A model generated the notes under the pieces. The model searched no databases. It was not told the origin of the DNA and worked only from the letters and a program-made list of their open reading frames with translations. Positions 2,592 through 36,513 of a DNA stretch of 36,759 nucleotides are shown piece after piece. The DNA comes from a virus (Duplodnaviria; Caudoviricetes), in IMG/VR virus record IMGVR_UViG_3300010366_000028, positions 1 to 36,759 of that record. One strand, given 5' to 3'. The number at the start of each line of letters is the position of its first letter. The first letter of the stretch is position 1. Position numbers and translations under genes: made by a program.

Positions 2592-4376
2592 CTAGCCCTT
2601 CACAAGATGGTAGTTCCCGTCGGCCCCCAGCTCATAGTGGCCCTTGCCATGGCCGCTGATTGGGATCGTCTGGGGCGTCGCAGGGGCGGCTGCCTTCGGT
2701 GCGGCGGGCGCGGCAGGCGCTGGGACCTCGGCCTTCGTCTTGCCGCGCGCAGGGATCCCCTCCTCGTTGCCGCCATAGCCGCTCATGCCCGCGAAGTGCC
2801 GCTTCTCCAGGTCCGCGTAGTAGGGCGAGTCGCTGAACCCCTCTTTAAACTCCTCGTACTTCTCGCTGCCCAGGCGCTGCAGCTCCGCGTAGGTCGCTTT
2901 GAGCGCCTCCTTGACGTTGGCTTTGGTGGTGTCGCCCCAGCCGCCGGTGTCGCCGCTCTCCAGGCGATCCTGAAACTTCCCTTTGAGCCCACCGAGGTGG
3001 CTCCCAAATTGGGCATAGGCTCCCTGGGTCACGGTGCCGCCGCCGCGCGCGGCGATGATCATCTTGTCGAGGACCTGCTGCTGGATCGCCGGATCCGTGG
3101 GGTGCTCATCCAGGAGCCGCATGGAGGCGCGCAGCTCCTCTTGGCCCTTCTTGATCTTGTAGAGCCCTTCTTTGTCGGCCCAGGTCTTGGCCTCGTTGGT
3201 GGCCAGCCGGCGATCCTGCAGGGCGAGACGCCTCTCGGCGAGGTCGGCACCCTTGCCGTGGGCCGCGAGCTGCTTGTTTAGCATCGCGCGCTGGTTGGCC
3301 TCGCGCGCCTTCGCCTCGCGCTCGCGCTCCGCCATCTCCTCCTGGCGCGAGTGGATCTTCTCGTCGTACTCGGACTCCTTCTGCAGGGCGTGCAGGTAGG
3401 TCTCGTTGCTCTGGATCTCGGCGGCGGACATCCCGCGCCGCTCCAGCTCCGCCTTGGTCTCCTGAGCGATCGTCTTCCAGCGAGCCGCAAACAGGGCGTC
3501 GTTGTCGTTCTGGGCCGCGCGGTGGTTCGCCTCCATGTCCTGCATCCCGTAGCGGGCCTCCAGGACGTCCTCTTTCGCGGCGGCGACCTTGGCCTGCTTG
3601 CGCCGGTAGTCGTCCTCCATCATCTGGTCGAGCGCGATCAGCCCCTGGTTCCGGGCCTGGCCCACCTGCCCGATCTTCGCCGCCCCAGCGTTCTGCAGCC
3701 CCTGCCCGATTGAGCCCAGGGCGATCATCAGCGCGGCCCAGACCCTGTCGCCGGTCCCTTTCCCCTCGAAATAGCCCTTGGTGAGGTCCTTCTCCGCCTC
3801 CTGATGCGCGAGCTTGCGTGCCTCCATGGCGGAGGTCCGCTCAGCGCGGTCCTTGGCGCGGCTCTCAGCCGCGACCTGGGCGGCAGCGGTCTCCTGGTCC
3901 TGAAGGGCCTTCTCCTTATCGGCCTGCTTGATCTTCGCCTGGGCCGCGATCTTGGCCAGGTCCGTCTTGTGCTGGTCGACCTCCCCCTCGTAGGCGGTCA
4001 GCTTGCGGTGGTAGTCGATGTCGTTCTGGACATCGACCTTGGGGTCGCCGGTCTGCTTGGGCGGGGTGGGCGGGGGCCCTAGCGGCTTGAGGACAATTTC
4101 CTGCTCCTCGGGCTTCCCGCCGCCAGGGGGGACTTCGCCGGTCGGCCCGGGAGCCGTAGGCGTGGGGGCCAGCTCGGGGCCTGGCGGCGCGAGCTCGTCC
4201 CCCTGGGGGGTAGGGGCCAGGCTGGGCGTCGGTACGCCTACGGGCGGCTCAGCGGCCTGGGCGGGGGTCACGAACTGGGGCGTCTGGAGGGCGTCCGCGT
4301 TCTCCTCGTCCTCCGGCCGGATCAAGTCGGGCAGGGGCCCCGCGACGTCGCTAGGGTCCATCCCGTAGGTCGCCAT
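2592..4376 (-). CDS. Putative internal virion (ejection) protein, coiled-coil, 594 aa
   Basis: Pro-rich N-terminus, long coiled-coil and a hydrophobic helix (WAALMIALGSIGQGL). Lies after the pilot protein. Confidence 0.65.
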   Translation of the reverse strand: MATYGMDPSDVAGPLPDLIRPEDEENADALQTPQFVTPAQAAEPPVGVPTPSLAPTPQGDELAPPGPELAPTPTAPGPTGEVPPGGGKPEEQEIVLKPLGPPPTPPKQTGDPKVDVQNDIDYHRKLTAYEGEVDQHKTDLAKIAAQAKIKQADKEKALQDQETAAAQVAAESRAKDRAERTSAMEARKLAHQEAEKDLTKGYFEGKGTGDRVWAALMIALGSIGQGLQNAGAAKIGQVGQARNQGLIALDQMMEDDYRRKQAKVAAAKEDVLEARYGMQDMEANHRAAQNDNDALFAARWKTIAQETKAELERRGMSAAEIQSNETYLHALQKESEYDEKIHSRQEEMAEREREAKAREANQRAMLNKQLAAHGKGADLAERRLALQDRRLATNEAKTWADKEGLYKIKKGQEELRASMRLLDEHPTDPAIQQQVLDKMIIAARGGGTVTQGAYAQFGSHLGGLKGKFQDRLESGDTGGWGDTTKANVKEALKATYAELQRLGSEKYEEFKEGFSDSPYYADLEKRHFAGMSGYGGNEEGIPARGKTKAEVPAPAAPAAPKAAAPATPQTIPISGHGKGHYELGADGNYHLVKG

Positions 4377-8819: not shown

Positions 8820-9557
8820 TCAGACGTATCCGTACTTTGCGCCGGTCGTTCGGTTGTAGTCGCAGACGATGTCGGCGTCGGCGCGCGCGAAGTCGAGGAT
8901 CCGGACGCTGGCCACCATGGCGTTGTTATTGGCCCCGCCCGAGAACCCGCCAACGCGGGTGCGGCCCCCTCCCGTTGCAGCGCTGGTCGTGGGCAGCGTC
9001 GCCACCTTGACGCCGTTGATCCAGAGGTCGATGTTGAAGTTGCCACCACCGCTGGATTGCCGCCGCACCGCCAGGTGGTTGAGGCGGAGGCGCGGGCCGA
9101 TGTCGACGGGCCCCGGGAAAGCTGTGTTGATGGCGAAGTCGGCCCAGGACCACCCGGTGTTGCCGTAGTAGATGGCGTATCCGAGCGTGTCGTACTGGAC
9201 GAAGGTCTGAACCGTGGTGGCGAAGATGTCGTTTCGGGTCCGGTACAAAAACTCGATGGTCATCTCGCCAGGCAGATCAAACGCCGACACGTTGGGCGCG
9301 ATCAGGTCGTTGCCAGCGGCATGGAAGTCATAGCCCATGATCGACGTCCCGAACGTGTCGAGCGTGGCGTAGACCGCACTGCCCGAGACGAGCGCCAGAT
9401 CGCGCGCGTTGCCGGAGGTGTCCGCGAGTGTGCCGTTCAGCTGCCACAGGGCGACGGTGCCGCTGATGTTCGGGTGGTAGCCGATGTCGCCCAGGCGGCA
9501 GGGGTCCTGGGTGCCGCCCCACGCTGGCCCCTGGATCGCCATCCCGCCGCCGAGCAT
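8820..9557 (-). CDS. Concanavalin A/LamG-like virion protein, 245 aa
   Basis: ALWQLNGTLADTSGN, MTIEF, LWINGV, VRILDFARADADI: the typical LamG-fold pattern. Confidence 0.7.
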   Translation of the reverse strand: MLGGGMAIQGPAWGGTQDPCRLGDIGYHPNISGTVALWQLNGTLADTSGNARDLALVSGSAVYATLDTFGTSIMGYDFHAAGNDLIAPNVSAFDLPGEMTIEFLYRTRNDIFATTVQTFVQYDTLGYAIYYGNTGWSWADFAINTAFPGPVDIGPRLRLNHLAVRRQSSGGGNFNIDLWINGVKVATLPTTSAATGGGRTRVGGFSGGANNNAMVASVRILDFARADADIVCDYNRTTGAKYGYV

Positions 9558-13711: not shown

Positions 13712-13943
13712 TGTTTAACTTCCCGAACGAGGTTTGGATGGCGCGCGCCGCGATCCGCCATTCGAGGCAAAGGCGGCGAGTAAGCGGGCGATCGTCGGTG
13801 GACATGGCAGCCACGAGGTCGCCGCATTCCTGCAAGTAGTGATAGAAGCCCAGCGATAGACGAACCGTCGGCCGCGTGGCCTCAACGGGAGGGGCGCACG
13901 GTTGCGTGGGCTCCTCAACGTCGTCCTCGATTCCCGGGATCAT
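13701..13943 (-). CDS. Hypothetical protein, 80 aa
   Basis: ATGA overlap with the portal stop; fills the portal-scaffold gap. Confidence 0.5.
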   Translation of the reverse strand: MIPGIEDDVEEPTQPCAPPVEATRPTVRLSLGFYHYLQECGDLVAAMSTDDRPLTRRLCLEWRIAARAIQTSFGKLNNER

Positions 13944-15829
13944 GCCGCCGCCAGTTGGACCGGCGGGATCGCGCCAGCCTCGGGGGCCGGAGGAGCGCCG
14001 CCGCCAGCGCCAGGAGGAGGCGCTGCCTGCGCCTCAGGGCCACCCGCAGCCGCCGCTCCCACCACGCCATTGATCTTGCCTTGCAGCCGCTTGACCTCGT
14101 CGAGATACACGCGGAGGAGGTCGAGGTTCTTCTCGGGAACGTCTTCGAGCTCGCCGAGCTTCAGGTAGCGGACGCCGTTCTTGAGAGCCAGGGCCAGGTT
14201 GTCGTACTCGGTCGGCAGCTCCGCCTTCCCGTCGATCAGGATGTTCTCGATCTGCTGCGAGATGCGCATCTCGGCGGCGCGCTCGAACGAGAACTCCGCC
14301 TCCGGATCCAGGTCGTCGAGCGCCGCCTGGGCGCGGTCCTGATCCCACACCCCGCCGCGCACCAGGTTGGTGACGGTGTCGATGCGGTCGGCCGGAGTCT
14401 GCGACAGCAGGTTCTCGGGCCAGGTGTCGACCACGAAGTCCGTCTCCGTGAGGTCCGCGACCTCGGACCAGTCGATGGTCTGCAGGAACCTGTAGCCCGG
14501 GACCTTGGCGACGACCGAGTACGACTTGTTAGAGCCGTAAACGAGCTTGGCCATGTTGACCGCGATCTTGGCCAGCTCGACAAAGAACGCCTCGTAGCGG
14601 GCCTGCCGGACCGCCAGGCGGTTCTGCTGGATCTCCATCGAGGAGCGGACCGCCTCGCCGGACTCGAGACCGGCTTCGCGCTGCCCAGCCGCCGCGTTCT
14701 GGTTGATCCCGCACAGCTCGTAGGCCTGCTGGACGTGCTGGTTGAGCATGTCGTAGGGCTCGCGCGACAGCGCCTGCACGGTGAGCGCCTGGGGCGCGCC
14801 GCCGGTCCCCTCGATGAACGAGCCGATGTCGTTGCTGATGCCGCTGCGGTTGATCTTGGCCCCCTTGGGGAGCCACCACCGCGGCACGCACGCCAGCTTG
14901 ATCGAGCGGTGGATGCGGGTGAGGAGGTTGTCGATCATCAGCTGGATGGGCGCGACGCCCTCAGCCAGCGAGCGACCCCACACGCCCGTGATCGCCGGAT
15001 CGCTGACCAGCAGTACGAAGGGGACCCACTTAAACTTCCACTTCTCCTTGCGCAGCAGACAGCCGGGCTCATTGCCTGGGATCACGATGGCGTGGAAGCC
15101 GTCTTTGCTGGGCAGGGAGCGGCGATACAGCTCATAAACAGGGACCATCCGCGTGTTGAGACCGTTGCCGCTGGGGTCCTCGGAGCGGGCGTGGATGATC
15201 GCCATCTGCTTTTCCGGCGAGTCGCCAAACTCGTCGAGCAGGACCGTCTTGTCGATCAGCCGCTTGCGCCCGATGACCTGGGCATTGTTGAAACCGTTAA
15301 ACCCTGCCGAGGCGTCGATCAGGATCTCGGTTGGGAGGATCCGCTCGATCTTCACGCGGCCGTCGTAGTGGCAGACCTGCAGGACCCCGCCTCCCATGAG
15401 CGCGTCATCCACGCAGACCATGCGGCCCAACTCATAGACGTCGTTCTCGGAGAAGATGCCGTCGTTGAGGTACTGCATCTTCTTGACCGCGCGGTGGGTC
15501 CGGCCGGTGCCGCCGGAGGCCAGGAAGCGAGGACGCGGGCGCGAGCGCGAGATGGTCGCCGCGTACGCCGAGATGACCGACCGCAGGACGTTCCAGACCT
15601 TGCGGTCGTAGAGCGTCCACAGGGGGACCATCGTGGACGTGGCCCCGACGGGCATCAGGGGGACCGCGGCGTTCTCGTACATCGCCACGTGGGTCGCGGC
15701 GGTGGCGCGGCGCATGATCTCGGACGCTGAGTCCTCGACCGCGCGCGAGTACTCGAAGGCATAGCGAGCGCGCAGCTCGTCCGGCACCTCCTCGGCCCAG
15801 AAGTCGATGTCAGGCTGGGCGGGCACCAT
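13940..15829 (-). CDS. Portal protein, 629 aa
   Basis: WNVLRSVIS...RPRPRF, DDALMGGG, WGRSLAE.V.PIQ, CGINQ.AAAG.R..GLESG.A and a low-complexity tail: a podovirus portal pattern. Confidence 0.85.
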   Translation of the reverse strand: MVPAQPDIDFWAEEVPDELRARYAFEYSRAVEDSASEIMRRATAATHVAMYENAAVPLMPVGATSTMVPLWTLYDRKVWNVLRSVISAYAATISRSRPRPRFLASGGTGRTHRAVKKMQYLNDGIFSENDVYELGRMVCVDDALMGGGVLQVCHYDGRVKIERILPTEILIDASAGFNGFNNAQVIGRKRLIDKTVLLDEFGDSPEKQMAIIHARSEDPSGNGLNTRMVPVYELYRRSLPSKDGFHAIVIPGNEPGCLLRKEKWKFKWVPFVLLVSDPAITGVWGRSLAEGVAPIQLMIDNLLTRIHRSIKLACVPRWWLPKGAKINRSGISNDIGSFIEGTGGAPQALTVQALSREPYDMLNQHVQQAYELCGINQNAAAGQREAGLESGEAVRSSMEIQQNRLAVRQARYEAFFVELAKIAVNMAKLVYGSNKSYSVVAKVPGYRFLQTIDWSEVADLTETDFVVDTWPENLLSQTPADRIDTVTNLVRGGVWDQDRAQAALDDLDPEAEFSFERAAEMRISQQIENILIDGKAELPTEYDNLALALKNGVRYLKLGELEDVPEKNLDLLRVYLDEVKRLQGKINGVVGAAAAGGPEAQAAPPPGAGGGAPPAPEAGAIPPVQLAAA

Positions 15830-15832
15830 GGG

Positions 15833-16075
15833 CTAGGACCGTTTGCCGTTGGCCTCGACGATGGCCGCCGCTGCTTTGTCGATCGCCTCCTGGTAGGCCT
15901 TCCCAGGATCGAAGTCCTCCTCCTCGGGGCCGCCCGCCGCCATCTCGGCGGACCTGGGCTGCGGCCAGGCGGGCTGCAGCTCTAGGCACATCTCGGGCGT
16001 CTCATACTTGGTCACGCCGTGCGCGCGGAGAGCGCCGAGGAGCCCGAGCAGCGCCTCCAGGTCGTCGTTGGACAT
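15833..16075 (-). CDS. Hypothetical protein, 80 aa, first gene of the virion operon
   Basis: L..LR.HGV.KYE pattern; starts 8 nt after the late motif. Confidence 0.7.
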   Translation of the reverse strand: MSNDDLEALLGLLGALRAHGVTKYETPEMCLELQPAWPQPRSAEMAAGGPEEEDFDPGKAYQEAIDKAAAAIVEANGKRS

Positions 16076-16083
16076 CAGTCCGG

Positions 16084-16111
16084 GTGCCGCCTGTTACGGA
16101 TCGGGCGGCAC
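16084..16111. promoter_or_regulatory. Back-to-back late motif (bidirectional promoter candidate)
   Basis: GTGCC-GCCT-GTTACG (exact copy on minus) overlaps CGGATC-GGGC-GGCAC (degenerate copy on plus), between divergent ATGs at 16075 and 16119. Confidence 0.7.
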
Positions 16112-16118
16112 GCTGGCG

Positions 16119-17612
16119 ATGCAGCCGCGTCTCACGAAGGCCGAGGCAGCCAAGCGAGAGCTGGACCGGCGTGCGCGACGGGCCCGCTTTGATCCTATCG
16201 CCATCTGTCACCCCAAACAGGCGGCGGTGGTGGCGGACCCGTCGCGCAACCTGGTCGTGGTCGCCGGTCGGCAATCGGGCAAGTCGTTCGTGGCGGTGCT
16301 TTGCGCGCTCCTGTGGGCTCGTTCAACCGAGCGCTGCAACGTTGTCTACGTCTCCGCGACGTACGCCTCGGTCAAGAAGATGGCTTGGCAGCCGTTGCTG
16401 GCCATAAACCGCGAGTACGCCCTCGGCGGCCACCCCAACTACACCGAGCTGTCGATGTCGTTCCCCAACGGCTCGACGATCTACCTGCTGGGCGTCGACT
16501 CCGAGAAGTCAGCCGACAAAGCCCGCGGCATCCCGCGCCTGGTGGGCGCGATCGTCGACGAGTGTGCCCGCTACGACCCCGATGTCCTCCGATACCTGCT
16601 GCGTGACGTGATCCGGCCGGGTCTCAGGCCCATGGCGGGGCGGATCATGTTGGCCGGGACCCCGAGCCCGCTCGGGAAAGTGGGCCCGCTGTGGGAGGCC
16701 CGCGAAAATCCCGCGTTTTCGCACCACACCTGGGACGCCTACGACAACACCAAGGTCGGGACCCGCGAGCAGATCGAGAAGATCATCGAGGACGACCTCA
16801 AGACCGAGCTCCAGGGGCGCGAAGGGGCGTGGTTCCGACGCGAATATCTCGCGGAATGGGTCGTGGACGAGGAGTCGCGCGTCTATCACTTCGACGAGGA
16901 CCGCAACACCTACGACCAGCTGCCCAACGACCTCAACATGTTCGCGTGCGCCGGCGACATCGGCGTGCGGGACGCCGACGCCATGGCCATCGTGGGCTGG
17001 AACGACGACCGGCCCGACCTGTATCTGGTCGAGGAGGTGATCCGACGCGGCCAAGACGCGCTCGATATGGGCGTCGAGGTCGAACGGGTGTGGAACACAT
17101 TCAATCCGATCGTGCTGGCCTTCGACGGAGGCGGCGGTGGGCTCAAGACGATCCTCACCATCCAGCACCTCTACCCCAACGCGCCGATCAAGGCGGTCGA
17201 CAAACCCAACGTGAACATGCAGGTCAAGGCCTTGAACCAGCTCCTGCGCCGCCTCAAGGTCCGGCGCGGGTCTCGCTTCTACGAGGAGGTCCGCAACAGC
17301 GAGTGGCTGCACGGGATCGTCAACGGACGGATCCGCGAGTACGGCCACAGCGACATCGTTCCCGCCATGCGCTACCTGGCGGTCGAGGTGCTCCAATACC
17401 TGCCCGGCGAGCTGGAGGTCTTCCGGGCCCCGCCGCCGAGCCTCCAGGACCGATACCGCGAGCAGGCGGTGCGGGAGGCCCGCCGCGTGCGACAGAACGG
17501 TGGCATCCAGGGCCTGCCGCCCGTGGACGACGAGGGGCGCGACTACCTGGAAACCACCGAGGAGCTCCCCGAGCCCGGCTGGAATCCGTGGGGCGGCGGC
17601 CAGGCCTGGTAG
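16119..17612 (+). CDS. terL: Terminase large subunit
   Basis: HPKQ Q-motif, Walker A VAGRQSGKS, Walker B AIVDE, coupling motif AGTP, RNase H-like AGDIG.RD and HSD...AMRY. ATG 16119 is preferred over the ORF-track start 16008. Confidence 0.93.
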   Translation: MQPRLTKAEAAKRELDRRARRARFDPIAICHPKQAAVVADPSRNLVVVAGRQSGKSFVAVLCALLWARSTERCNVVYVSATYASVKKMAWQPLLAINREYALGGHPNYTELSMSFPNGSTIYLLGVDSEKSADKARGIPRLVGAIVDECARYDPDVLRYLLRDVIRPGLRPMAGRIMLAGTPSPLGKVGPLWEARENPAFSHHTWDAYDNTKVGTREQIEKIIEDDLKTELQGREGAWFRREYLAEWVVDEESRVYHFDEDRNTYDQLPNDLNMFACAGDIGVRDADAMAIVGWNDDRPDLYLVEEVIRRGQDALDMGVEVERVWNTFNPIVLAFDGGGGGLKTILTIQHLYPNAPIKAVDKPNVNMQVKALNQLLRRLKVRRGSRFYEEVRNSEWLHGIVNGRIREYGHSDIVPAMRYLAVEVLQYLPGELEVFRAPPPSLQDRYREQAVREARRVRQNGGIQGLPPVDDEGRDYLETTEELPEPGWNPWGGGQAW

Positions 17613-19743: not shown

Positions 19744-19856
19744 GGTCAGGCGTGCCCGGAGTGGCCACAACGGGATCGTCCTGCAGGGCGATGGGGGTGC
19801 GGGCGTGGGTAACCACGTCCCGACTCCCACGCGGGTTCAAATCCCGCCCCTGACCA
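19744..19856 (+). tRNA. Non-canonical tRNA-like RNA (GCA-containing 6-nt loop, ~39-nt variable arm, 8-bp bulged acceptor)
   Basis: Acceptor GGTCAGG(C)G/CCCTGACC, D-arm CCCG-GAGTGGCCACAA-CGGG, anticodon arm TCGTC-CTGCAG-GGCGA, long V-arm with GTAA loop, T-arm GCGGG-TTCAAAT-CCCGC. Confidence 0.65.
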
Positions 19857-19857
19857 C

Positions 19858-20076
19858 TTACTCGCCAGGCCCGTAGACCACCAGCGTGTGCGCGATCTGG
19901 CACCAGGGCACGCGCACGATCCCAGCATGCGTGCGGATGTCGATCCCGAACAGTCCCTCCGTCCCGTCCACGTCCCACAGCACATCGATCGGCCGCGCGA
20001 TGTGGGGCAGCTGCTGCACCGAGGCCAGGGCGATCTTCCGGTACCGCGTCACCTTCCCCAGATTCGGCGGCTCCAC
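19858..20076 (-). CDS. Hypothetical protein, ~72 aa
   Basis: GTG start overlapping the TAG of the GNAT gene; ends IVRVPW.QI. Confidence 0.55.
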   Translation of the reverse strand: MEPPNLGKVTRYRKIALASVQQLPHIARPIDVLWDVDGTEGLFGIDIRTHAGIVRVPWCQIAHTLVVYGPGE

Positions 20077-21974: not shown

Positions 21975-21976
21975 CG

Positions 21977-22047
21977 TTGCAGGGGTGGGAATCGAACCCA
22001 CTTGGTGGGGTTATGAGCCCCATGACGCTCCGGTCGTCCACCCTGCA
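21977..22047 (-). tRNA. tRNA-Met(CAT), initiator (fMet)-like
   Basis: TGCAGGG/CCCTGCA acceptor, GACG/CGTC D-stem, TGGGG-CTCATAA-CCCCA anticodon arm with consecutive G-C pairs, GTGGG-TTCGATT-CCCAC T-arm, A73. No encoded CCA. Confidence 0.85.
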
Positions 22048-32438: not shown

Positions 32439-32522
32439 ATGAAACGCCTCGGCCCCTGGATCCTGGCCCTCGCGGCCGTCCTGTTCCTGTTGGGCTCGGT
32501 CTACTTCTGGAGCCAGCGGTGA
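32439..32522 (+). CDS. Tiny membrane peptide, 27 aa
   Basis: MKRLGPWILALAAVLFLLGSVYFWSQR; its stop overlaps the next GTG. Confidence 0.45.
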   Translation: MKRLGPWILALAAVLFLLGSVYFWSQR

Positions 32523-32725
32523 CCACCCCGAAGTGGTTCAGCTGGGCCCAGACGATCGGCTCATCGACCAGCGCCTACGCGTACGCCAGCTGGTACGCCC
32601 CCCAGCCATGGCCGCCGCCCGTGCGCGCCACAGCTAACCCCTACGCGGCGGACCCCGACGCCAGGCACCTTGCCCGCATGAAGCGAGACCTCGCGGCACC
32701 GTGGCCCCCACGGAGGCCCACGTGA
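32519..32725 (+). CDS. Hypothetical protein, 68 aa
   Basis: GTGA-coupled on both sides. Confidence 0.45.
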   Translation: MTTPKWFSWAQTIGSSTSAYAYASWYAPQPWPPPVRATANPYAADPDARHLARMKRDLAAPWPPRRPT

Positions 32726-32799
32726 GGCCTGTGCTGGCCATCGTCCTGGCCCTGGTGCGCGTTCTGGGTGCGGCGTTTACCTACATGATCCGGAGGTGA
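32722..32799 (+). CDS. Tiny hydrophobic peptide, 25 aa
   Basis: GGAGG RBS; MRPVLAIVLALVRVLGAAFTYMIRR. Confidence 0.45.
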   Translation: MRPVLAIVLALVRVLGAAFTYMIRR

Positions 32800-32802
32800 T
32801 GC

Positions 32803-33051
32803 GTGCGATACAGATTCCAAAAGAGCTGGTGCTCTGCCTGCAAGCTGATGCAGTACCCCGGCGAATGCGGCCACCCGTACCTGGTCGCGCCCGACGTGAG
32901 CCCGCGGCGCGTCCGGTTTGGCCTGACCCCGAGCGACGGGGCCGGGATCAAGGCGGCGGCGCTCGCCGAGCTGGTAAAACAGATCGATGGGGGAAGACCT
33001 GGGGACGCGGGCTCGCAGAAACCGCTATTCAAGCCACTTCCGCGGCGTTAG
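32803..33051 (+). CDS. Hypothetical protein, 82 aa
   Basis: GGAGG RBS 6 nt upstream; WCSAC...CGH. Confidence 0.5.
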   Translation: MRYRFQKSWCSACKLMQYPGECGHPYLVAPDVSPRRVRFGLTPSDGAGIKAAALAELVKQIDGGRPGDAGSQKPLFKPLPRR

Positions 33052-33196
33052 AGGATGCGCGGCGGAACCCTCACAGGGTTCCCTAACTCCGCGCACCCCG
33101 CCCTAAGTCCGCGGCGCGTGCGGAGATGCGCGTCACCCGCCACCACCGACCGTATGGGGTCGTAACAACGTTTGTGGGGTTTTTCGTGGGGGCAAC

Positions 33197-33415
33197 ATGG
33201 GCGACATCGAGGACCTGACCAAGTACCGGGCCGCGCAGGTGGCTGCCGTTAGGCGCCTGGTTGAGGAGCTGCGGCAAATAGTCAGCAACGGGATAGTCAT
33301 TTCCTGCGTTTGCCACCATGGGCAAGAATACCATTCTCGGGTCGGGTGCTTAATTGTTGGTTGCGGTTGCCCTGCCGAAACTTCCCACTTGATCGCCCCA
33401 TGTCCTCCGGGGTAA
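33197..33415 (+). CDS. Hypothetical Cys/His-rich protein, 72 aa
   Basis: GDIEDLTKYR; CVCHH...H...C...C.C. Confidence 0.55.
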   Translation: MGDIEDLTKYRAAQVAAVRRLVEELRQIVSNGIVISCVCHHGQEYHSRVGCLIVGCGCPAETSHLIAPCPPG

Positions 33416-33496
33416 GCCCGATCGCAAGGGGAGCGGTGGCCCCGGGCGACTTGGCGGGGCCAGCTTCCCGAACTTCAAACCGGAGGCTGGAATAGC

Positions 33497-33793
33497 GTGA
33501 TCGACAACGACGACCTACGAGTGGCCGAGCTTGAGGTGCTAGCCGAGCTTGGGACGGCTGACGCCAATAGGATACTGGAACAGCTGCCGGTCCGGCTTAA
33601 GGCGGACCGTGCGCGCGTAGGCGCGGATCTGCAGCGCCTGGAAAAGAAGGGCCTGGTCGCCCGCGTCGCGGGCTTCACCCTCACGCAGACGGGCCGCGAA
33701 CTTCTGACCGCCATCGCGACCATCAAATCGTCATTCCCGGGCCAGGGCCGCGTGGCACAGCCCCACGCCAACGGCGTCGCCAAAGAAGAGTAG
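33497..33793 (+). CDS. Winged-helix DNA-binding protein, 98 aa
   Basis: ELEVLAEL...LQRLEKKGLV......FTLTQTGRELL; GGAGG RBS. Confidence 0.7.
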   Translation: MIDNDDLRVAELEVLAELGTADANRILEQLPVRLKADRARVGADLQRLEKKGLVARVAGFTLTQTGRELLTAIATIKSSFPGQGRVAQPHANGVAKEE

Positions 33794-33803
33794 CCTCTAG
33801 TCC

Positions 33804-33876
33804 GCCGCCATGGCCCAACGGTAGGGCGACGGTTTTTCTAGCCCGGAGTGTGCCGGTTCGAGTCCGGCTGGCGGCT
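33804..33876 (+). tRNA. tRNA-like gene 1 (aberrant anticodon arm, inner segment TTTTTCTAGC)
   Basis: GCCGCCA/TGGCGGC acceptor, GCCC/GGGC D-stem, GCCGG-TTCGAGT-CCGGC T-arm, U73. Confidence 0.8.
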
Positions 33877-33883
33877 CCTTGCC

Positions 33884-33959
33884 CCCCCCGTGGCCTAATG
33901 GCAAAGGCGACGGTGTTTAGATCCGGAGTATGGGGGTTCGAATCCCCTCGGGGGGACCA
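33884..33959 (+). tRNA. tRNA-like gene 2, anticodon TTA in canonical register (ochre-suppressor-like), encoded CCA
   Basis: CCCCCCG/CGGGGGG acceptor, GCCT/AGGC D-stem, ACGGT-GTTTAGA-TCCGG anticodon arm, GGGGG-TTCGAAT-CCCCT T-arm, ACCA end. Confidence 0.8.
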
Positions 33960-33979
33960 GTAGTCTAGAAATGACTTAG

Positions 33980-34055
33980 GCCACCATGGCTCAGGGGTTA
34001 GAGCGACGGCACGTCAAGCAGCCGGAGTGGATGGGTTCGAGTCCCATTGGTGGCT
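33980..34055 (+). tRNA. tRNA-like gene 3 (10-nt loop ACGTCAAGCA)
   Basis: GCCACCA/TGGTGGC acceptor, GCTC/GAGC D-stem, ATGGG-TTCGAGT-CCCAT T-arm, U73. Confidence 0.8.
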
Positions 34056-34061
34056 CCGTTT

Positions 34062-34133
34062 CCCTCCGTGGCTTAACGGCAAAGCGACGGCAACCTAGGC
34101 CGGAGTATGGGGGTTCGATTCCTCCCGGAGGGA
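34062..34133 (+). tRNA. tRNA-like gene 4 (loop AACCTAG, no U33)
   Basis: CCCTCCG/CGGAGGG acceptor, GCTT/AAGC D-stem, GGGGG-TTCGATT-CCTCC T-arm, A73. Confidence 0.8.
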
Positions 34134-34139
34134 CAGGCT

Positions 34140-35555
34140 TTAGGCGCTCAGCGTGCAGCGGGCGAAGGCGTTGGCGGAGAGCTGCGTGCAGCCGGTGGCG
34201 TTGGGGTGGGTCCCATCCGAGGTCAGGATCCCGGTCGTCACGTTCGAGCCGTTGTTGGCGATTTCGTAAGCCTGTTGCATCGCTCGCTGGTTGATGAAGC
34301 AGGCCCCGGTCTCCATGGCCACCCAGTTGACCGCGTTGGCCACGGCCTGGATCAGGCGCCCGACGGCATCGGGCATGTTCTCCTTCACACACGTGGGGCC
34401 GACGAAGGCCAGCTTGTTCGCGGCGCGTCCGCTGCCGGTCCATTTGGTCACCATCGAGCGGCAGGCGGCGACGGTGTCCGGGATCTCGGTGTGGAGGGTG
34501 GTGTCGTTGATCCCCCCCTCGATGAAACAGGCTTGCGGGTTCAGCGCCAGCACGTCCGCGTTGAAGCGCGCGTCCATCTGGGGGAGCGTGTTTCCCGAGA
34601 CGCCCTTGTTGCTGGTCGTGATCGCGCTGCCACCCAGGCCCGAAAGGCCCGAGTTGATCGAGGTGATCAGCGGGTTCATCCATGGCGTGGGGCCCGGGAT
34701 GCCTGCCGTGATCGAGTCCCCGATAAACACGACCAGATCGGCGCCCTTGATCAGGATGTTGACCGTGGGCTGGGGGCCCCAGTACGGGTTACGGAGGAGG
34801 TTCGTGCACGGAAACTGGCATTGCCAGATCTCGGTTAGGAAGTCGTAAACCTGCTGATTGGTCGGATAGGGCGAGGCCCATTCGAATCCGCCCACCACCT
34901 GGCCGTTGAGGAATTCGCCGGGGCTGAAATTCCCGCCGAGCAAGAGCCCCGTGTACGAGCTGGCCCCCGCGTTGCCGGTGACCACGTAGCCGCCGCTAGT
35001 CGAATAGGGCTGGGTTACGTTCATGTCCACGCGGGACGTGGCGCCGTTGAATTCGGCGTAGAGCGTGTTCCACTTGCCCGCCGTGGGGCCGATGCCGTTG
35101 GCTCCGCCCGAGCTGATGAACGTGCTGCCCGCCATCCCGAGCCACGGCGGAACCGAGCTATTTAGATTGAGGAGGGTCCGATTCGTTCCGGGCGTGCCAT
35201 CGGTAAACGTGTGGTTCGCGCCGTCGGCGGTGTTCTGCTTGACGATCATCAGCCGCATGTATGGCTGCGACAGGCTGCCCTTCGTGAACAGCAGCCGGCG
35301 GTCGCCGCCAGCGCTGAAGTCGATGCTGTAGCCGCCCGAGGCGGCCTGGGCGAGCGTGGGGCCGGTGCCGCTCGGAAGCGTGGCAGCCTCTCCTGCGCCA
35401 GCTTTGTTGCGGACCACGCCCGTGGGGATGGCGCCGCTGACAGTGAGCGTGGAGTTGCGCTGGCGATCGTAATCGAACGGATCCAGCCACCAGGTCAGCG
35501 ACGCCTGGTTGGGGATCCGGAGGTGAAACGTGTTCGGGCGGCCGAAAGCTGGCAT
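34140..35555 (-). CDS. Lectin-like (LamG) + SGNH/GDSL hydrolase, putative receptor-binding esterase, 471 aa
   Basis: SGNH blocks VFIGDSIT, NKGVSG, GGIND and DGTHP; N-terminal WWLD...NKAG beta-sandwich. Confidence 0.85.
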   Translation of the reverse strand: MPAFGRPNTFHLRIPNQASLTWWLDPFDYDRQRNSTLTVSGAIPTGVVRNKAGAGEAATLPSGTGPTLAQAASGGYSIDFSAGGDRRLLFTKGSLSQPYMRLMIVKQNTADGANHTFTDGTPGTNRTLLNLNSSVPPWLGMAGSTFISSGGANGIGPTAGKWNTLYAEFNGATSRVDMNVTQPYSTSGGYVVTGNAGASSYTGLLLGGNFSPGEFLNGQVVGGFEWASPYPTNQQVYDFLTEIWQCQFPCTNLLRNPYWGPQPTVNILIKGADLVVFIGDSITAGIPGPTPWMNPLITSINSGLSGLGGSAITTSNKGVSGNTLPQMDARFNADVLALNPQACFIEGGINDTTLHTEIPDTVAACRSMVTKWTGSGRAANKLAFVGPTCVKENMPDAVGRLIQAVANAVNWVAMETGACFINQRAMQQAYEIANNGSNVTTGILTSDGTHPNATGCTQLSANAFARCTLSA

Positions 35556-35558
35556 GGC

Positions 35559-36146
35559 TTACACCGCGTAGATCTGGTTGATGTAGAGCCAGTTCACGCC
35601 GTCGAATTGGAAGTAATAGGCGATGACCGAGGTGGGCGTCGCGCCGGAGACGACCAGGTTGCCACCCGCCAGACCGCCGTTGGCAATCGTCATCGAGAAC
35701 GCCGTGGCATCGCGACGCACGATTTCGACCACGGTTCCCGCGGGAGGCGATCCCGTCGTGCCGAGGGTGATGACGTGGTTGCCCGTGTATGTGGTGGCGG
35801 GCAGCGTGTAGCGGCTGGCCTTGTCGGTGCCCGGGTTGATGGTGACGTCGGCGTTGGTGATGGCGGTGCCAGAGACCGGCGTGGTCGCGTTGCTGGAGCC
35901 GCCTCCTCCGCCTCCTCCGCCCAGGACCCAGCGGAGGCTCGGGCAGCCGAGCACCGTCTCGACGTTGGTGTGGTCGATGGTGGCCGTCGAGACCTGGAGG
36001 CCCCAGGAATTGGCCGCGGTGTCGACTACCGTGATGCCGACCGGGAAACCCGTGGGGTCCAGCGTGGCGAGGTCGATGACCTGCACCTTGAGGACCTGAG
36101 GGACTTGGGCGTTGGCGTTGCCCGCAACGACAGGGATCAGGGCCAC
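35559..36146 (-). CDS. Putative structural (tail-associated) protein, 195 aa
   Basis: GTG 36146 after AAGGAG; poly-Gly linker; ...YFQFDGVNW ending typical of small tail-fibre/spike modules. Confidence 0.65.
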   Translation of the reverse strand: MALIPVVAGNANAQVPQVLKVQVIDLATLDPTGFPVGITVVDTAANSWGLQVSTATIDHTNVETVLGCPSLRWVLGGGGGGGGSSNATTPVSGTAITNADVTINPGTDKASRYTLPATTYTGNHVITLGTTGSPPAGTVVEIVRRDATAFSMTIANGGLAGGNLVVSGATPTSVIAYYFQFDGVNWLYINQIYAV

Positions 36147-36147
36147 G

Positions 36148-36513
36148 TTAGATCTCCTTCCCGACGGCAATGACCGTCAGGGTCCCGGTCCCCGACGTGA
36201 AGGTGTAACCGACGCGCAACCAGTCATAGGGGTACTGATTGAAGTTCACGCCGAACGTCGCGCCCGCGGAGCCCGCCGGGTTGGTTGGCGCGGTGCCAGT
36301 GGGCGTGACCGTGAACCAGTTGCCGGAGCTGGCGGTGCCGTCGGCTGAGTCGTTGGAGCCGAAGAACGTCCAGCTCCCGGTCGCCGCGGTCCCGGTGAAC
36401 GTGTATTCGAGACCGATGTTGTCGACCGCGCGGGTGTAAAACCCATTCGAGCTGATGTTGGCGGTCATCGCGACCGCATCAACCATCCGAAATCGAAGTC
36501 GTACGCTGGCCAT
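36148..36513 (-). CDS. Putative structural protein, 121 aa
   Basis: ATG 36513 with GAGGAGG RBS; GSND....NWF...WLRV.YT..SGTGTL beta-sandwich pattern. Confidence 0.7.
   Translation of the reverse strand: MASVRLRFRMVDAVAMTANISSNGFYTRAVDNIGLEYTFTGTAATGSWTFFGSNDSADGTASSGNWFTVTPTGTAPTNPAGSAGATFGVNFNQYPYDWLRVGYTFTSGTGTLTVIAVGKEI

Follow-up and report, generated by a model that had tools for sequence, protein, structure and literature searches.

The window analyzed here, the whole of the IMG/VR record IMGVR_UViG_3300010366_000028, is a single contig of 36,759 nt with a GC content of 67%. Because the ends of the window overlap by 123 nt, it was taken to represent a complete circular phage genome of ~36.6 kb. 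The gene content includes a podovirus-type portal, terminase, major capsid protein, and internal virion protein, along with a tyrosine integrase, repressors, and a DNA methylase; the phage is temperate and podovirus-like. Terminase relatives in viral contigs are distant (35-46% in the best six loci). The terminase gene (16008-17612, plus strand) opposes the portal gene (13940-15829, minus strand) and the other structural genes, and terminase and portal are co-directional in the relatives G001, G002, and G004. The stretch was present in four runs, all soil metagenomes, of which one may be the source of the record and one carries a small share of the stretch, and no RNA run was found among the listed runs holding the array described below. 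For the host, two groups were compared: the integrase matched 31 of 301 genomes in the phylum of a Polyangiaceae MAG (best E value 1e-59, 35% identity) and 0 of 151 genomes in the class of a Solirubrobacterales MAG, which makes a Myxococcota host likely at the level of the phylum.

An array of four tRNA-like units is situated between the last rightward gene and a convergent structural gene. The features of this region are as follows.

33197..33415, plus strand: 72-aa Cys/His-rich ORF upstream of the winged-helix gene; no family match; 3' part present in the relative from run X4 (see below)
33497..33793, plus strand: gene for a 98-aa winged-helix protein with its own ribosome-binding site; MarR_2 match at E 0.0014, below the cut-off
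33804..33876, plus strand: unit 1, A type; Thr(CGU)-like acceptor (G1-C72, C2-G71, U73); A27·G43 and U31·C39 unpaired; 8-nt loop; tail CCU
33884..33959, plus strand: unit 2, B type; Arg(CCU)-like acceptor except for C1-G72/A73; C20; 7-nt loop; U31·U39 unpaired; encoded CCA
33980..34055, plus strand: unit 3, A type; Thr-like acceptor with U73; G15·G48; 10-nt loop that still holds a CGU triplet; tail CCG
34062..34133, plus strand: unit 4, B type; C1-G72/A73; C20; 7-nt loop with A32, A33, anticodon CCU, A37, and G38; tail CAG
34140..35555, minus strand: GDSL-hydrolase gene (likely tail), the last gene of the structural operon

The letters and coordinates of the array agree with the preliminary description, which had recognized four well-paired cloverleaves; the unit bodies span 33804-33876, 33884-33956, 33980-34055, and 34062-34133, and only the body of unit 2 is followed by an encoded CCA. 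All four units were called by ARAGORN, and all four matched the Rfam tRNA family RF00005 well above its cut-off of 29 bits (52.0, 55.1, 46.3, and 47.0 bits for units 1 to 4), in line with the check that had been proposed. Every stem pair outside the anticodon arm was formed (acceptor, 28/28; D, 16/16; T, 20/20; overall, 64/64), with 62 Watson-Crick and 2 G·U pairs. Six pairs were altered on both sides across the units, and their covariation score was reached by 0 of 500 shuffles, a figure that derives from four related sequences and is hence not a probability. The tertiary bases U8-A14, G18G19, and U54/U55/C56/A58 were present in all four units, and A15-U48 was present in three, being replaced by G15·G48 in unit 3. 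The sequence is repeated without substitution in contigs of runs X2 and X3 (33478-34083 and 34017-34239; the runs are possibly from one sampling campaign), so the array is not an assembly slip.

The alternating A-B-A-B acceptors, with U73 and A73, and the shared 7 + 7 nt that flank inner segments of 10, 9, 12, and 9 nt were likewise as first described. Within the anticodon arm, A27·G43 is open in all four units, and units 1 and 2 also lack a 31·39 pair, such that none of the four possesses a canonical 5-bp anticodon stem. An alternative drawing places the shared 14 nt in a single helix with tandem G·A pairs, which appears in the predicted folds of units 2 to 4. The loops measure 8, 7, 10, and 7 nt. 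A canonical 7-nt loop with U33 was found in unit 2 only, and this loop (G32, U33, anticodon UUA, G37) carries the sole in-register stop anticodon within the window, as had been noted; unit 4 has A33. In canonical register unit 4 reads CCU, and unit 1 reads UUC if its loop is anchored on the 5' side and UCU if it is anchored on the 3' side. The identity elements are mixed in both types. A-type units have Thr acceptor pairs 1 and 2 but no in-register G35-U36, the CGU of unit 3 being off register. B-type units combine the Pro-type G72/A73 seen in 21 of 23 Pro tRNAs with the absence of G35-G36, have lost the Arg base A20, and, in the case of unit 2, hold three of four Lys elements. tRNA-Sec has a long acceptor and variable arm, and tRNA-Pyl has a 6-bp anticodon stem, CUA, and short loops. 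Neither identity was assigned to the units, whose acceptor is 7 bp, whose variable loop is 5 nt, whose anticodon stem is weak, and whose best Rfam match is plain tRNA.

The winged-helix gene stops 10 nt ahead of unit 1, and its linkage to the array is kept in the relative from run X4; the protein, for which the AlphaFold model is poor (pLDDT 51), is a putative regulator of the array module. On the other side, the stop codon of the GDSL-hydrolase gene lies 6 nt past unit 4 on the opposite strand, and late read-through transcripts from this convergent gene would therefore run antisense to the array. No intrinsic terminator and no promoter consensus were predicted in 32500-34500. The ORF at 33197-33415 is in the same frame as the winged-helix gene, separated from it by one TAA. 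A read-through fusion of the two was rejected, since the winged-helix gene has its own ribosome-binding site and a manual reading of the differences listed for the X4 contig places a second in-frame stop four codons on. The array is also unlikely to be the attachment site, because it lies ~4.8 kb from the integrase and because tRNA-Gly adjoins most loci of integrase homologues. At 8 of 10 such loci in Myxococcota (L569-L578), the adjoining gene was tRNA-Gly(GCC/CCC), which is the likely attachment site for the integrase family.

It had been argued that unrelated tRNA isotypes would not normally share one anticodon arm. The scaffold is indeed common to the four units, but its oddity is weakened by the Myxococcota Thr(CGU) and Arg(CCU) genes, which already share a CGG..CCG stem. 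The 5' half of the scaffold is commonplace: a loose pattern returned GCGACGG..CCG tRNAs of 16 named isotypes at 90 of 119 viral loci among the matches listed, 87 of them with a normal 9-nt inner segment; base 43 was G in only 2 of those 90, again among the matches listed. Ordinary tRNA(CAU) genes with 7-nt loops at L137, L333, and L353 (two Actinomycetota MAGs and one metagenome contig) carry all 14 nt of the scaffold, which is therefore compatible with a normal tRNA. With a model derived from the array, for which 40 sources were rescanned, these three genes were the top non-self scorers at 71-74 bits. As a further observation, their match to the array scaffold is exact, including A27·G43 and U46 (~2978-3053 in L137).

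Among Myxococcota, the top scorers with the array model were tRNA-Thr(CGU) genes, at up to 67 bits. All 10 Thr(CGU) genes recovered had a GCC start and U73, 6 had a GCCRCC start, and 6 had an ACGG..CCG stem with a paired 27:43; the acceptors of the four Arg(CCU) genes recovered were identical to unit 2 or unit 4 save for 1:72. Because these Thr and Arg genes were selected for their similarity to the units, the comparison is biased. With the same selection, the host genes match the array in six of seven acceptor pairs, in U73 (Thr), and in the CGG..CCG anticodon stem, whereas they differ from the units in pairing 27:43 and in having a canonical loop; in addition, the Thr genes carry G46 and the Arg genes A20 and G73. 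Arg tRNAs at the Myxococcota loci had A after the D-loop GG in 12 of 13 cases and G73 in 13 of 13, whereas units 2 and 4 both carry C20 and A73. According to excerpts of PMC9976931, the chief determinant of Arg identity is A20, and bacterial Lys identity lies in A73, U34, U35, and U36. The bases at these positions show a loss of predicted Arg identity in units 2 and 4. In ordinary tRNAs, a set enriched by the search patterns, U33 was present in 347 of 365, positions 31-39 were paired in 347 and open in 18, and G32 was found in only 9.

A plain duplicated pair descending from one ancestor, as first proposed, was not borne out by alignment. A-to-B scores were 16-23, not above the scores of 24-32.5 between the units and their closest ordinary tRNAs. 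We infer that the A and B units may represent two host-derived bodies that converged, or were homogenized, on one arm. The alternative is that all four units descend from a single ancestor, which these alignments did not show.

The loops of all four units contain a triplet complementary to a stop codon, and the preliminary description had suggested a suppressor set covering all three stops. The triplets are present, but they are weak evidence: CTA, TTA, or TCA occurred somewhere in positions 31-39 of 365 of 798 ordinary tRNAs (37% with equal anticodon weights), none of them in register. When the inner segments were shuffled, a triplet appeared in all four in 1.8% of trials; this test was made post hoc, and the sequences are related. 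In units 1 and 4 the CTA corresponds to C35-U36-A37 of Arg-type UCU/CCU loops, one base off, and the TCA of unit 3 is preceded by G inside a 10-nt loop whose U33-based reading is CAA. The phage itself is not recoded. No in-frame stop was found in the 24 phage genes checked (7,899 codons; genes ending in TGA, 11; TAA, 8; TAG, 5), and where ORF alignments of related loci to the window held a stop (8 of 64), all were antisense to real genes and none was on the sense strand. With units 1, 3, and 4 out of register and the genome not recoded, the three-stop set is not supported, leaving one ochre-type anticodon in unit 2 and probably a second in the X4 relative. A gene lay in frame after the stop for 4 of 24 phage genes, approximately the chance level. 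Such in-frame neighbors were observed for the structural genes 2592-4376, 8820-9557, and 35559-36170 (minus strand), two of them with one codon between. The loops were also considered as antisense guides and set aside: their best genome matches of 7-10 nt were indistinguishable from chance.

The one relative of the module that was seen is a partial, 1,065-nt contig of run X4 with a depth of 4.3. Its two upstream ORFs differ from the window at 67 of 345 letters, with a further 8 gap letters, whereas unit 1 differs at 3 of 74 with no gaps (Fisher P value versus upstream, 0.0005). Past unit 1 the contig has 117 letters, which is room for one more unit, followed by a B-type unit and then the start of an A-type unit. 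The B-type piece differs at 8 of 48 letters and is no better kept than the upstream DNA (P value, 0.84); it has a new acceptor 3' strand with the G72-A73 end retained. The final A-type start differs at 1 of 29 (P value, 0.04). The final 11 letters of this last unit, placed in the family register, give C30, C31, a 7-nt loop UUUUAAA (U33, UUA, A37), C39, and G40, and the contig ends 2 nt past the loop. The last unit thus placed probably carries an in-register UUA, although the alternative is a Lys(UUU) loop closed by a shortened stem. The unit 1 loop is probably unchanged, as no differences were listed away from the ends of the matching piece and those within ~30 letters of the ends were apparently omitted; the chance of 8 unchanged nt in this loop is ~0.18. 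The kept body of unit 1, together with the altered B acceptor and last loop, indicates that relatives differ in unit order and in loops but retain the bodies.

A search of phage metagenomes with the scaffold had been proposed; searches of viral contigs, metagenomes, and genomes yielded no further array beyond the X4 relative. The strict scaffold with the T arm had no match in viral contigs. Looser patterns matched viral contigs at no fewer than 119 loci (in 16 of 64 parts), at least 119 loci (22 of 64 parts), and 99 loci; these were ordinary tRNAs or chance matches, with no array among the matches listed. Metagenomes gave at least 120 loci (16 of 64 parts), including nine tRNAs, none in a similar array among the matches listed. 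Two metagenome tRNAs with G32 (L175 and L182) were set aside as AT-rich, repeat-like, and probably eukaryotic DNA. Genomes gave at least 121 loci (28 of 64 parts), with two ordinary tRNA(CAU) genes among the matches listed. In 401 genomes of the likely host phylum, the pattern had one chance match, as did the reversed control, and GenBank phages gave generic tRNA-arm matches only. The winged-helix protein had no match at viral loci and none in the 401 genomes, and six weak, unrelated matches were found in 301 genomes. Among the titles and abstract openings listed in searches of an open-access library, none described such an array. We regard the array as genuine and under selection, and as a variant of the tRNA-like arrays of phages that appears not to have been described before.

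Other tRNA-like RNAs are found in this phage and its relatives. A fifth, remodeled tRNA-like RNA lies at 19744-19858 (plus strand; z score, -4.3) and is absent from the ARAGORN and Rfam calls. It has an acceptor-type stem, a possible His-like G-1:C73, a proper T arm, and three inner hairpins. The sole normal-looking tRNA of the phage is an initiator-type tRNA-Met(CAU) at 21976-22047 (minus strand), with three G-C anticodon-stem pairs and U1-A72. None of five terminase-relative records held an Rfam tRNA over the cut-off. In one of the relatives, G002 (L443), a non-coding region at ~14660-15060 (minus strand) contains a cloverleaf whose anticodon loop has 4 nt, a mini RNA of acceptor and T arm, and further hairpins; the cloverleaf and the mini RNA have z scores of -2.3 each and no Rfam tRNA match. 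The RNAs at 19744-19858 and in G002 show that this phage group keeps tRNA shapes unable to decode, with no homology to the array implied. A tRNA-Met(CAU)-like cloverleaf in G004 (L445; 3030-3101, minus strand) has an acceptor like that of the window's initiator tRNA and lies inside the apparent start of a scaffold gene after the portal. In L451, L453, L461, L468, and other viral loci, a recurring 3' half of tRNA-Met(CAU), from the anticodon onward, is joined to non-tRNA DNA, probably marking attachment sites of gut phages.

The array most resembles the anti-defense tRNAs of phages: T5 tRNA-Lys/Thr/Asn against PARIS AriB, T5 tRNA-Tyr against retron Eco7, and those in the hypothesis of van den Berg et al. 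(2023). Like these it is phage encoded, its anticodon arm is changed, and its isotypes (Thr and Arg) are hit by tRNA-targeting defenses. By analogy it would be placed with them, yet it departs from their defining working anticodon and identity. The known examples keep canonical loops and identity and restore translation, whereas in the array three of four loops break the rule of U33 and 7 nt, Arg identity is lost, and one weakened stem is common to all. Unit 2 is comparable to the orphan Sup-UUA tRNAs of standard-code phages and bacteria and to 4-bp-stem tRNAs, as excerpted from PMC13092985, with an in-register UUA, U33, an unpinned 27:43, and a non-recoded genome. It differs from them in its neighbors, an array of paralogue-like units whose loops are non-canonical, and in its G32, G37, and open 31·39. 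The array does not belong with the suppressor tRNAs of recoded phages, as it has an in-register stop anticodon in unit 2 only and the phage has no in-frame stops. Finally, unit 1 resembles +1 frameshift suppressors (the sufJ type and the quadruplet decoders covered in part of PMC4764823) in its 8-nt loop, where the additional U lies on the 5' side. Those examples are mutants or engineered, whereas unit 1 places this loop on a Thr-type acceptor without a Thr anticodon, and frameshifting by it is putative.

Judging from the anatomy of the units, we tentatively favor the possibility that they are poorly decoding tRNA mimics acting as anti-defense decoys. The winged-helix gene and the array would share a transcript, from which RNase P and 3' nucleases of the host would release the units, and the host would add CCA. 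The resulting RNAs would be poorly charged and poorly used by ribosomes and would occupy nucleases, or toxins that modify CCA or the acceptor, aimed at Thr, Arg, or Lys tRNAs, with loop turnover serving as escape from cleavage; unit 2 may besides read UAA weakly. This reading is favored because the body is conserved and the loop is not (64/64 pairs, covariation, and X4 unit 1), because decoding features are lost (U33 or loop size in three of four units and A20 in both B units), because the phage group holds the other non-decoding RNAs (19744-19858 and G002), and because Thr and Arg tRNAs are known targets. Colicin D is specific for Arg tRNAs. It is named among the tRNA-targeting enzymes in an excerpt of PMC10264068. 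AriB cuts Lys, Thr(UGU), Asn, and Thr(CGU) tRNAs, and the authors suggest that some viral tRNAs may inhibit AriB by competition (PMC12409363, in part). FaRel2 picks Gly/Thr tRNAs by acceptor pairs, according to excerpts of 10.1101/2024.07.05.602228; three of its four determinants are present in unit 1 and two of four in unit 3. Against a decoy role, the known anti-defense phage tRNAs replace the cut tRNA, and a decoy function is a suggestion made in PMC12409363. The seemingly unchanged X4 unit 1 loop would mean that loop sequence matters, UUA is in register in two of the five loops seen, and the X4 B-type piece is no better conserved than the upstream DNA in a relative that is single, partial, and of low depth.

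The same conservation bears on a very improbable reading, that the units are decaying host-derived tRNA copies without function. Non-canonical loops, an encoded CCA in only one of four units, and the absence of a homologue from the collections searched would fit it, but decay should have left random stem breaks where all 64 pairs and their compensatory changes are found, and conservation of unit 1 clearly exceeds that of the neighboring DNA (P value, 0.0005); the conservation pattern largely refutes it. Processing enzymes read the acceptor, T arm, and elbow of tRNAs. These are the conserved parts of the units, and the folds could be punctuation for RNase P and 3' trimming that terminates and stabilizes rightward transcripts and shields them from the late operon converging on them, leaving the loop nearly free. 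The array sits exactly between the last rightward and last leftward genes (10 nt and 6 nt away), where no intrinsic terminator was predicted. One unit would be enough for this, however, and four units of two acceptor types, an invariant anticodon stem, and the G72-A73 retained in X4 are left unexplained, so that we consider it improbable. We hold in the same low regard the proposal that the units are nuclease-resistant replacements when host tRNAs are cut, with unit 4 as Arg(CCU), unit 1 as Arg(UCU), and unit 3 as Thr(CGU). Units 3 and 4 do retain triplets of the isotypes that their bodies resemble, evasion of nucleases by loop-changed phage tRNAs has been proposed (PMC10264068, in excerpt), and it has been shown for T5 (PMC11555353 and PMC12409363, each in part). 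Nevertheless, several features speak against normal charging and decoding (A33 in unit 4, loops of 8 and 10 nt, the missing A20, and the flipped 1:72 pair), the codons are barely used by the phage (AGA, 3; AGG, 24; of 7,899), and the functional anticodon and identity of the T5 type are lacking.

A rather unlikely but more substantial rival to the decoy reading is that the units are error-prone decoders. The unpinned 27:43 would provide a flexible chassis, and together the units would make termination or frame keeping less strict in the host or in rival phages. Under this proposal unit 2 would read UAA, likely charged with Lys via U34, U35, and A73, which are among the Lys elements A73, U34, U35, and U36 (PMC9976931, in excerpt), and unit 1 would shift +1 at AGA-N, 8-nt loops being described as a cause of +1 shifts in part of PMC4764823. 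In its favor, A27·G43 is retained in four of four units while all acceptor, D, and T pairs are intact. Excerpts of PMC13092985 report that an unpinned 27:43 pair aids read-through in E. coli and that its A·G form, C27A in tRNA-Trp, gave UGA read-through. They further report 4-bp anticodon stems in 5.6% of all bacterial tRNAs, with the highest shares in Met(CAU) (27.3%), Sup(UUA) (20.5%), and Thr(CGU) (18.5%). The last X4 unit in the family register (C30-G40, 7-nt loop, U33, UUA, A37) is consistent with such a role, as is the stop-complementary triplet followed by a purine in five of five loops (shuffle chance for the triplets of the window's four, 1.8%). On the other hand, no phage gene needs such decoders, given the 24 genes free of in-frame stops and the antisense position of all stop-holding alignments (8/64), and in-frame neighbors after a stop are at about chance (4/24). 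In unit 2, position 32 is the uncommon G (9/365), position 37 is also G, and 31·39 is unpaired; units 3 and 4 are without a usable stop register, and the X4 contig stops 2 nt after a loop also readable as Lys(UUU) on a shorter stem. Decoy action and error-prone decoding may both hold, for different units. The fullest version of the latter, in which a natural modular tRNA chassis combines the flexible stem (tandem G26·A44/A27·G43) with two host-derived acceptor types and swappable loops into an ochre suppressor, a +1 frameshifter, and other misreaders, and in which a temperate phage would loosen termination and frame keeping on purpose against host defense or rival phages, we regard as doubtful.

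Why phages carry tRNA genes is a long-standing question, and the current answer, replacement of tRNAs cut by defense systems, requires working tRNAs. In this array, known from the sequence of one genome and one partial relative, the tRNA body and a stem of the read-through type are maintained by selection, whereas the loop departs from the rules of decoding, which suggests that replacement is not the whole story. Four short genes on one scaffold form a matched set for decoy versus miscoding roles, and a natural flexible-stem chassis, if true, would be relevant to the engineering of suppressor and quadruplet tRNAs.

Some minor observations concern the array and the tRNA genes of Myxococcota. 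The word CTAG, which is avoided in the phage (28 occurrences in the whole genome), occurs four times within 300 nt, at 33797, 33838, 33965, and 34095. In the spacer between units 2 and 3, 7 nt are complementary to the unit 1 loop and could form a small hairpin, which may be due to chance. Large tRNA arrays in Myxococcota genomes (L579, L581, L583, L586, L587, L596, and L598) contain several Leu tRNAs with short variable arms and unusual acceptors.
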